Below are positions 22,511-25,500 of a stretch of 64,000 nucleotides of DNA, in pieces. The stretch comes from Escherichia coli. GTDB taxonomy: Bacteria; Pseudomonadota; Gammaproteobacteria; Enterobacterales; Enterobacteriaceae. Made by a program: the position numbers. Every line of letters starts with the position of its first letter. Position 1 is the stretch's first letter. The stretch lies in NCBI RefSeq assembly GCF_048403405.1, contig NZ_CP183129.1, one strand, 5' to 3'.

Positions 22511-25500
22511 TGATTTTTACCGTTGCATCATGTCGCCCAATATGATGCTTGCTCGTACCAGGCCCCTGCAATTTCAACAGGGGCCTTTTTTTATCCCCGA
22601 GAAGTATAAAAAACGAACGATTTCGGTGATCAGTTGAGCGCGTGACAGTGCGCATAGCGTTGTGCTAAAAATTTTTATATATTCATATTAATTATGTAAT
22701 TTAAATTACTAAAACTGACAAATATATATTCTAAATAACAACTGGGTTATTCTTTAGCAATTAATGATTACATTGTAATAAATCATATTCTTTATCGATT
22801 ATTTCAGGCAGTGTTGTGCCGAATTATGCAAGCGGTCAATTCGTTGTATATTTAATTATACAATGATTTCGGTGTTCTGGAATTAATTAGAGGAATCTAT
22901 GCGAGGGAAAAAACGCATTGGGTTAATGTTTTTGCTGATAGCGGTTGTGGTTGGTGGCGGCGGGTTATTGCTGGCGCAAAAAGCCTTACATAAAACGTCG
23001 GATACAGCATTTTGCCTTTCCTGCCACTCGATGAGTAAACCTTTTGAGGAATATCAGGGAACTGTCCACTTTTCGAACTAGAAAGGGATACGTGCGGAAT
23101 GTGCCGATTGCCATATTCCAAAGTCAGGGATGGATTATTTATTCGCTAAATTAAAAGCATCTAAAGATATTTATCATGAATTTGTTAGCGGCAAAATAGA
23201 CAGTGACGATAAGTTCGAAGCGCATCGTCAGGAAATGGCCGAAACAGTATGGAAAGAATTAAAAGCCACTGACTCTGCAACGTGTCGTAGTTGCCATTCT
23301 TTTGATGCCATGGATATTGCCTCGCAAAGTGAATCTGCGCAGAAAATGCATAACAAAGCGCAAAAGGACGGCGAAACCTGTATCGATTGTCATAAAGGCA
23401 TTGCCCATTTTCCACCAGAAATAAAAATGGATGACAACGCGGCGCATGAGCTGGAAAGTCAGGCCGCTACCTCAGTTACCAATGGCGCACATATTTATCC
23501 TTTCAAACCTTCTCGTATAGGCGAACTGGCTACCGTGAATCCTGGTACCGATCTCACCGTCGTTGATGCCAGTGGCAAACAGCCGATCGTTCTGTTGCAG
23601 GGTTATCAAATGCAGGGCAGTGAAAACACGCTCTACCTGGCGGCAGGTCAACGGCTGGCGCTAGCCACATTAAGTGAAGAAGGTATCAAGGCGCTGACGG
23701 TAAACGGGGAATGGCAGGCTGACGAATACGGCAATCAATGGCGTCAGGCGTCTTTACAGGGTGCGCTTACCGATCCCGCATTAGCGGACCGTAAACCGCT
23801 ATGGCAATACGCTGAAAAACTTGACGATACCTATTGCGCTGGTTGCCACGCCCCTATTGCCTCCGACCATTACACCGTCAATGCATGGCCGTCCATTGCC
23901 AAAGGAATGGGGGCGCGAACCAGCATGAGCGAAAACGAACTGGACATTTTGACGCGGTACTTCCAGTACAACGCCAAAGATATTACCGAGAAACAGTGAT
24001 CCTCGTTGATCAGGGAGGAAGTTATGACATTAACAAGACGTGAATTTATTAAACACAGCGGTATTGCCGCTGGGGCGCTGGTGGTGACATCGGCTGCACC
24101 GCTACCCGCATGGGCAGAAGAGAAGGGTGGCAAAATCCTCACCGCGGGCCGTTGGGGAGCGATGAACGTAGAAGTGGAGGACGGCAAGATTGTTTCTTCG
24201 ACAGGCGCGCTGGCGAAAACCATACCGAACTCCTTACAGTCTACGGCGGCGGATCAGGTACACACCACGGTGCGTATTCAGCATCCGATGGTGAGAAAAA
24301 GCTATCTCGATAATCCACTGCAACCAGCGAAAGGTCGTGGCGAAGATATCTATGTACAGGTGAGCTGGGAGCAAGCATTAAAACTGATTCATGAGCAACA
24401 TGATCGTATTCGTAAAGCTAACGGACCATCGGCCATTTTTGCTGGATCGTACGGCTGGCGCTCTTCTGGCGTGTTGCATAAAGCGCAAACCTTACTGCAA
24501 CGTTATATGAACCTTGCGGGCGGTTATTCCGGGCATAGCGGCGATTATTCAACCGGTGCGGCACAGGTGATCATGCCGCATGTGGTGGGTTCCGTGGAGG
24601 TGTATGAACAGCAGACCTCCTGGCCGCTGATTCTGGAAAACAGCCAGGTTGTGGTGCTGTGGGGGATGAACCCGCTGAATACCTTAAAAATTGCCTGGAG
24701 CAGTACCGATGAGCAAGGGCTGGAATACTTCCATCAGCTGAAAAAATCTGGCAAACCAGTGATTGCCATTGATCCTATCCGCTCCGAAACTATCGAATTC
24801 TTTGGCGATAATGCCACCTGGATCGCGCCGAATATGGGCACCGACGTGGCGTTGATGTTAGGGATTGCGCACACCTTGATGGTACAAGGTAAGCACGATA
24901 AGGCCTTCCTGGAAAAATACACCACCGGCTACCCGCAGTTTGAAGAGTATCTGGCAGGCAAGAGCGATAATACGCCGAAGAGCGCGGCCTGGGCGGCGGA
25001 AATTTCTGGCGTACCGGAAGCGCAGATAATCAAACTCGCTGAACTGATGGCGGCGAATCGCACAATGCTGATGGCTGGCTGGGGAATTCAGCGCCAGCAA
25101 TATGGTGAACAGAAACACTGGATGCTGGTGACGCTGGCGGCGATGTTAGGGCAGATTGGTACACCGGGCGGCGGGTTTGGTTTCTCTTATCATTACTCAA
25201 ACGGTGGCAACCCGACGCGTGTTGGCGGCGTGCTGCCGGAAATGTCTGCGGCGATTGCCGGACAGGCCAGTGAGGCCGCTGATGATGGCGGAATGACGGC
25301 GATTCCTGTTGCCCGTATCGTCGATGCGCTGGAAAATCCTGGCGGCAAATATCAGCATAACGGTAAAGAACAAACGTATCCGAATATCAAAATGATCTGG
25401 TGGGCGGGTGGCGGTAACTTTACCCATCACCAGGATACTAATCGTCTGATTAAAGCATGGCAGAAACCGGAGATGATCGTCGTTTCTGAATGCTACTGGA

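Follow-up and report, generated by a model that had tools for sequence, protein, structure and literature searches.

An inherited amber codon at position 61 of torY in a lineage of Escherichia coli

The gene torY specifies the pentaheme cytochrome that is paired with the reductase TorZ, and in one Escherichia coli genome its reading frame contains a TAG. Is this codon real, where did it come from, and can TorY and TorZ still work together in its presence? These questions were addressed for a window, by which the whole analysed stretch of 64,000 nucleotides from contig NZ_CP183129.1 (assembly GCF_048403405.1) is meant. It is very probable that torY is here a lineage-specific nonsense pseudogene, produced by the change of Gln61 to an amber codon, and that the TorYZ system is most likely non-functional or strongly attenuated.

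Identity of the interrupted gene

The features of the locus are as follows.

22514..22898, no strand assigned: region between cutC and torY, presumed site of the torYZ promoter; nearly identical in Ecol_316 on alignment
22899..23081, plus strand: torY 5' fragment, 60 sense codons with the anchor and the first CXXCH motif (residues 39-43), then the premature TAG
23079..23081, plus strand: premature amber TAG, a C to T transition at 23079 in the ancestral CAG of Gln61
23082..23999, plus strand: torY 3' remnant, 305 codons and TGA, with heme motifs 2-5 (residues 68, 129, 161 and 313)
23130-23999, plus strand: 289-aa ORF within the 3' remnant, its own membrane anchor or signal sequence absent
24024..26453, plus strand: intact torZ, an 809-aa molybdoenzyme S-/N-oxide reductase with a twin-arginine signal, in an operon with torY

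The window sequence, the ORF list and the frame-1 translation agree that the torY frame occupies 22899-23999. An ATG at 22899 opens the 60-codon ORF that ends with the TAG at 23079-23081, and beyond it the frame runs on without a stop, from 23082 as far as the TGA at 23997-23999. An earlier, sequence-only reading had described two ORFs in one frame, separated by the TAG alone and adding up to 366 codons. The common frame was confirmed, and the total holds when the TAG position is counted, being then equal to the length of TorY in K-12; the peptide quoted around the stop is also exact against the translation. The listed ORFs, however, lie 48 nt apart, as the 289-aa ORF starts from the ATG at 23130, 16 codons past the TAG. 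Whether the N-terminal and C-terminal parts are normally separate genes in related strains had also been asked. A single 366-codon gene was found in every other genome inspected, and torY as a normally split gene was therefore rejected.

The assignment of the gene to torY, proposed in the same reading, agrees with the RefSeq annotation of identical DNA, with the PF03264 domain and with the cutC-torY-torZ-cmoB synteny. The wider gene order, argS, yecM, cutC, torY, torZ, cmoB and cmoA, is shared with K-12 and strain 042. After repair of codon 61 to Gln, the Pfam model PF03264 (NapC/NirT N-terminal region) matches residues 6-174 with E = 2.3e-68. Five CXXCH motifs are found in the repaired protein, four of them N-terminal (residues 39, 68, 129 and 161) and one C-terminal (residue 313), and a hydrophobic anchor lies near the N-terminus at residues about 7-26. 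The domain, the five motifs with the anchor and the position directly upstream of torZ are all those of TorY; an uninterrupted frame of 366 codons is what the gene lacks, with the TAG at codon 61. The gene is torY by descent and a pseudogene by state. A consensus scan for the promoter and terminator of the torYZ operon gave nothing above chance, and the promoter was left unassigned.

The closest known counterpart is TorY of K-12 (YecK), the pentaheme c-type cytochrome of torYZ, with the same cutC-torY-torZ-cmoB locus, 366 codons, five CXXCH motifs and anchor. Only 6 amino-acid substitutions besides codon 61 separate it from the TorY of the window. At codon 61 itself K-12 has CAG whereas the window has TAG, so that by standard decoding the gene of the window gives no full-length protein.

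The repaired TorY also matches TIGR02161 and TIGR02162 in NCBIfam. Its top matches there are pentaheme TorC models, with scores below the equivalog cut-offs, as expected of a TorY paralogue. TorC, the cytochrome of torCAD and the subject of TIGR02162, shares with TorY a NapC/NirT tetraheme domain and a C-terminal monoheme domain. Against that model the repaired TorY reaches E = 1.5e-92 and 310.9 bits, which is less than the equivalog cut-off of 478.2, and it is thus a paralogue of TorC and not TorC. TorY pairs with TorZ while TorC pairs with TorA, and the torYZ operon has no torD. A two-gene operon of a pentaheme cytochrome and a periplasmic Mo-reductase is likewise found in Haemophilus influenzae as MtsY/MtsZ, and in some genomes of that species one gene of the pair is annotated as a pseudogene (PMC5122715). 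MtsY/MtsZ differ from TorYZ in belonging to another phylogenetic group and in preferring methionine sulfoxide; a role in virulence has been shown for them in H. influenzae, which is not so for TorYZ of E. coli.

Across the species the gene is nearly universal. Of 5,426 complete E. coli genomes, 5,425 gave a megablast match to torY; coverage reached at least 80% in 5,403, and the annotation of the matches was always 'torY: NapC/NirT family cytochrome c'. A torY match at 80% coverage or more was thus missing from about 22 further genomes of this set, and given this number the loss of torY now and then is not unusual.

Origin and inheritance of the amber codon

The closest intact allele is that of Ecol_316, in which a single base of torY, nt 181, is different: C in place of the T of the window, which gives CAG (Gln61). 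Codon 61 was read directly in six other strains, Ecol_316, 042, C4, THO-008, 135 and MG1655, and was CAG in each, in keeping with the sequence-only reading, in which CAG had been expected from the K-12 protein. On comparison of the sequences, the event is one C to T transition at 23079, CAG to TAG, giving a rare derived allele. A nonsense pseudogene is defined by a stop within the frame of its full-length orthologues where close relatives have a sense codon, and this is the case here. A Dcm hotspot (CCWGG) was considered as the cause of the transition and rejected, the ancestral context AACCAGAAA not being a Dcm site.

A 71-nt probe centred on the TAG had an exact full-length match in only 6 of the 5,426 complete genomes; a seventh record in the band of at least 99% identity did not appear among the full-length rows and presumably matches only in part. 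The carriers are listed below, with torY in all of them 100% identical to that of the window, TAG included.

TUM14771: Japan, faeces; TAG torY
GN02461: USA, blood; TAG torY
4621: Houston, blood; TAG torY
MS 69-1 (NZ_CP146675.1): USA, colon; TAG torY
TUM1226: Japan; TAG torY
isolate 68 (OX030728): Spain; TAG torY

In all six genomes PGAP flags torY as a pseudogene with an 'internal stop'; torZ is given there as an intact gene, WP_000176757.1, and is identical to that of the window. They differ from the window in lacking its lambdoid prophage in yecE. In public assemblies the exact 60-aa product was found on 309 contigs and the 289-aa ORF on 289, and in the gene index the 60-aa product occurs in 429 blocks. 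In the draft of MS 69-1 the fragments were deposited as two proteins, EFJ83291 (60 aa) and EFJ83292.

The flanks were compared over window positions 16899-29421. No SNP separates the window from MS 69-1 or TUM1226 over this span, one separates it from isolate 68 and two from 4621, and the differences from GN02461 and TUM14771 are confined to a clustered patch in flhB/flhA. The strains C4, THO-008 and 135, which carry the torY allele with CAG, have about 108 sites that differ from the window over the same span. Outside the flhA patch the TAG carriers differ at 0-2 SNPs compared with about 108 in the CAG carriers, and the TAG carriers are therefore one clone.

Single-base errors do occur in assemblies, and the TAG could in principle be an error of sequencing or assembly. 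Such an explanation has virtually no probability left, as the same base is present in six complete genomes sequenced independently and on some 300 public contigs, the change is a substitution outside any homopolymer, and the 12 kb flanks are identical to those of MS 69-1 and TUM1226. By these comparisons the TAG is to be taken as real, inherited and lineage-specific, and sequencing error as excluded.

A further question is whether the loss of torY was positively selected, as a pathoadaptive or niche-adaptive change, or spread by neutral drift. The lineage in which the allele is fixed has been sampled across the globe and consists of human isolates (blood, faeces and colon), and the presence of the allele on about 300 contigs could also be read in favour of selection. 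Against this, there was apparently one mutational event that has hitch-hiked in a clone, since identical torY genes with near-identical flanks do not point to repeated, independent inactivation of this gene. A torY match at the 80% coverage threshold is missing from no more than about 22 other complete genomes, and a second inactivating mutation, that of tar, in part of the same clone fits ordinary drift. Selection thus appears unlikely, and the torY TAG is an ordinary gene loss, in an allele already flagged in RefSeq, with nothing mechanistically new. A literature search for a described torY pseudogene of E. coli returned no paper specific to it.

Little has changed in the operon since the event. 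Of 9 other TAG-bearing assemblies, 8 agree with the window at every base of the torYZ stretch (3,555 nt), and a single additional SNP sets the ninth apart. The absence of secondary decay fits a recent event, and it also fits a continued selection on torZ or on a leaky product.

Several other observations concern the history of this region. The window and TUM14771 have 43 differences over 29.4 kb, 34 of which fall within 15855-17458 (flhB/flhA); this clustering suggests a recombination patch. The patch splits the TAG lineage, with TUM14771 and GN02461 on one side and MS 69-1, TUM1226, 4621, isolate 68 and the window on the other. Apart from the TAG, torY is identical in C4, THO-008, 135 and Ecol_316, yet the flanks of C4, THO-008 and 135 diverge at about 108 sites in 12.5 kb, which suggests a mosaic, recombined history of the torY region. 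The tar gene (9075-10735), which encodes the aspartate chemoreceptor, carries a second inactivating mutation of the window, a 1-bp deletion (GGGGG to GGGG) at codons 16-17 (about 9118-9122) that shifts the frame after 16 residues. The 86-nt context of this deletion was found exactly in only 5 complete genomes, three of which (4621, MS 69-1 and isolate 68) are of the TAG lineage; TUM14771, of the same lineage, keeps the intact run of five G.

Decoding of the amber codon and consequences for TorY and TorZ

The TAG at codon 61 sits between the first and second CXXCH motifs (residues 39 and 68) and inside the NapC/NirT domain (residues 6-174); the sequence-only reading had correctly placed it in the heme-binding N-terminal region. 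RF1 would end translation at codon 61, and the resulting peptide of 60 aa, with the anchor and one heme site, would be unable to form the tetraheme quinol-dehydrogenase module. The attachment of heme to c-type cytochromes takes place in the periplasm. A product restarted from Met78 would for this reason be heme-free, and is predicted to be a cytoplasmic, inert apoprotein with neither motif 2 nor an export signal.

Could the two pieces nevertheless act together as a split protein, the anchored monoheme peptide of 60 aa beside the 289-aa piece restarted at Met78? Some deposited annotations do call both ORFs as genes, such as the two MS 69-1 entries. The 289-aa ORF, however, has no N-terminal hydrophobic or signal segment, which puts the periplasm out of its reach, and residues 61-77, including heme motif 2 (CADCH, 68-72), are absent from both pieces. 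On direct reading the Shine-Dalgarno spacing ahead of the ATG at 23130 is poor, and every other E. coli genome examined has a single 366-codon torY. A working split protein is accordingly given hardly any credence.

The other way in which TorY could survive is by decoding of the TAG as sense, whether through a suppressor tRNA or because a near-cognate tRNA reads UAG-A efficiently, with full-length functional TorY still made. A purine 3' of UAG, especially A, is a context that favours suppression, near-cognate tRNA-Gln(CUG) would restore the wild-type residue, and torZ and the remainder of torY show no further decay. The only tRNA genes in the window, at 45230-45479, are phage-borne genes for Met(CAT), Arg(TCG) and Arg(TCT), and no tRNA with a CUA anticodon was found in it. 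CUA versions of glnV, tyrT/V, serU, leuX and trpT, each of these genes being one mutation from an amber suppressor, were searched for in the 5,426 complete genomes, with non-canonical suppressors outside the coverage of this search. No tyrT/V(CUA) was found in these genomes by a tyrT-based search, which would miss suppressors derived from tyrU, and no trpT(CUA) was found in them either. A serU(CUA) occurred in one record, DSM 498, whose genome has the size of that of K-12, and among the leuX(CUA) matches listed for the 5,426 genomes none was full-length. By these results, wild isolates have no suppressor version of tyrT/V, trpT, leuX or serU. A glnV(CUA) occurred in 155 records; among the 40 that were listed are many named laboratory strains of K-12 (such as C600, DH5alpha, DH1 and J53) and none of the six TAG genomes. 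In the rows and counts obtained for the five genes, no CUA version fell in any of these six. Because only 40 of the 155 records were listed, glnV and glnX of TUM14771 were read directly with ARAGORN in the metT-leuW-glnUW-metU-glnVX operon, and both have the wild-type CTG anticodon.

Programmed recoding is not indicated either, the stop being unconserved across orthologues, with 6 of 5,426 genomes sharing the TAG context and CAG in the closest relatives. Basal readthrough of UAG in E. coli is typically well below 1%, and the torYZ operon is already weak. Readthrough that maintains a functional TorY is therefore very improbable. Basal near-cognate readthrough would insert Gln, in an amount expected to be small. 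That a leaky UAG-A keeps up a trickle of wild-type TorY, through insertion of the original Gln by tRNA-Gln(CUG), is a conjecture to which we likewise attach a very low probability. If it were true, torYZ would be strongly attenuated, or responsive to the level of RF1 or to stress, and the absence of decay in torZ and the rest of torY would be explained.

The nonsense pseudogene hence remains the preferred reading, with no observation directly at odds with it, and from it we infer the functional effects, that is, the absence of holo-TorY, a TorZ without donor and polarity on torZ. The torZ gene itself begins 24 nt past the torY stop and is intact, as had been claimed; its product of 809 aa carries a Tat signal (residues 3-31). 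TorZ scores 1258 bits against TIGR00509 (bisC_fam), above the cut-off of the model, and is identical to that of GN02461. It would still be encoded and exported by the Tat route while cut off from the quinol pool, and is most likely left with no quinol-linked electron donor. The sequence-only reading had predicted this loss of the donor unless the amber is suppressed. The prediction is supported, and the suppressor search in the window, in TUM14771 and in the 5,426 genomes lent nothing to the exception. Moreover, the torY mRNA ahead of torZ would go untranslated over about 920 nt and be open to Rho-dependent polarity, by which the transcription of torZ would be lowered, and torZ may in consequence be under-expressed.

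The loss would probably be tolerated, as E. coli has several redundant S-/N-oxide reductases and torYZ is weakly expressed. In PMC5122715 the torYZ operon is described as weakly expressed and no physiological role as established, and K-12 with torYZ alone is stated not to respire TMAO unless the operon is overexpressed (Gon et al. 2000, via PMC5122715). Seven S-/N-oxide reductases are counted in PMC12096835 and are regarded as redundant; in a uropathogenic strain, exposure to HOCl, copper or paraquat led to a 3- to 6-fold induction of torZ (PMC12096835). Taken together, these findings make the loss of TorY look tolerable.

For annotation, torY in this lineage should be labelled a pseudogene, and TorZ expected to be without a dedicated quinol-linked donor. 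The TAG can also serve as a handy single-base marker of the lineage. The finding is possibly relevant to studies of TMAO/TMA metabolism, or of S-/N-oxide (oxidative damage) repair, in which MS 69-1 or related clinical isolates are used. MS 69-1 is among the strains recorded as having a type II choline-utilisation (cut) cluster, and had been obtained to test the conversion of choline to trimethylamine (PMC4453576). A link between this cluster and the loss of a TMAO reductase component is speculative. Should the amber be leaky, an altered TMAO/TMA metabolism might matter to the niche of MS 69-1, given its cut cluster (PMC4453576).

Prophage and other features of the window

Upstream of the torY region, flhE and argS lie only about 50 bp apart (19186-19237), and yecT and yecV of K-12 are absent there in this lineage. 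Downstream, the remainder of the window (29434-64000) is taken up by a lambdoid prophage that has entered yecE at its 5' end. The junction is at 29433/29434, and the insertion removes about 24 codons of yecE. The integrase lies next to it.

29440-30753, minus strand: prophage integrase, an ORF in the yecE prophage

Also encoded are a CI-like repressor, an O-like replication protein, an endolysin, a large terminase, a major head protein and a tape-measure protein. This prophage is absent from all six complete TAG genomes, and its junction was unmatched in the 5,426 complete genomes in a 25-kb search. In the late region of the prophage, the three tRNA genes named above (45230-45479) precede the lysis genes, a place that is taken in Stx phages by ileZ-argN-argO and stx. 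No stx genes were found in the prophage part of the window, and no ORF of the size of stx lies past the tRNA genes. The closest phage match of the prophage is PhiR49_2, with 54% coverage and 96.7% identity.
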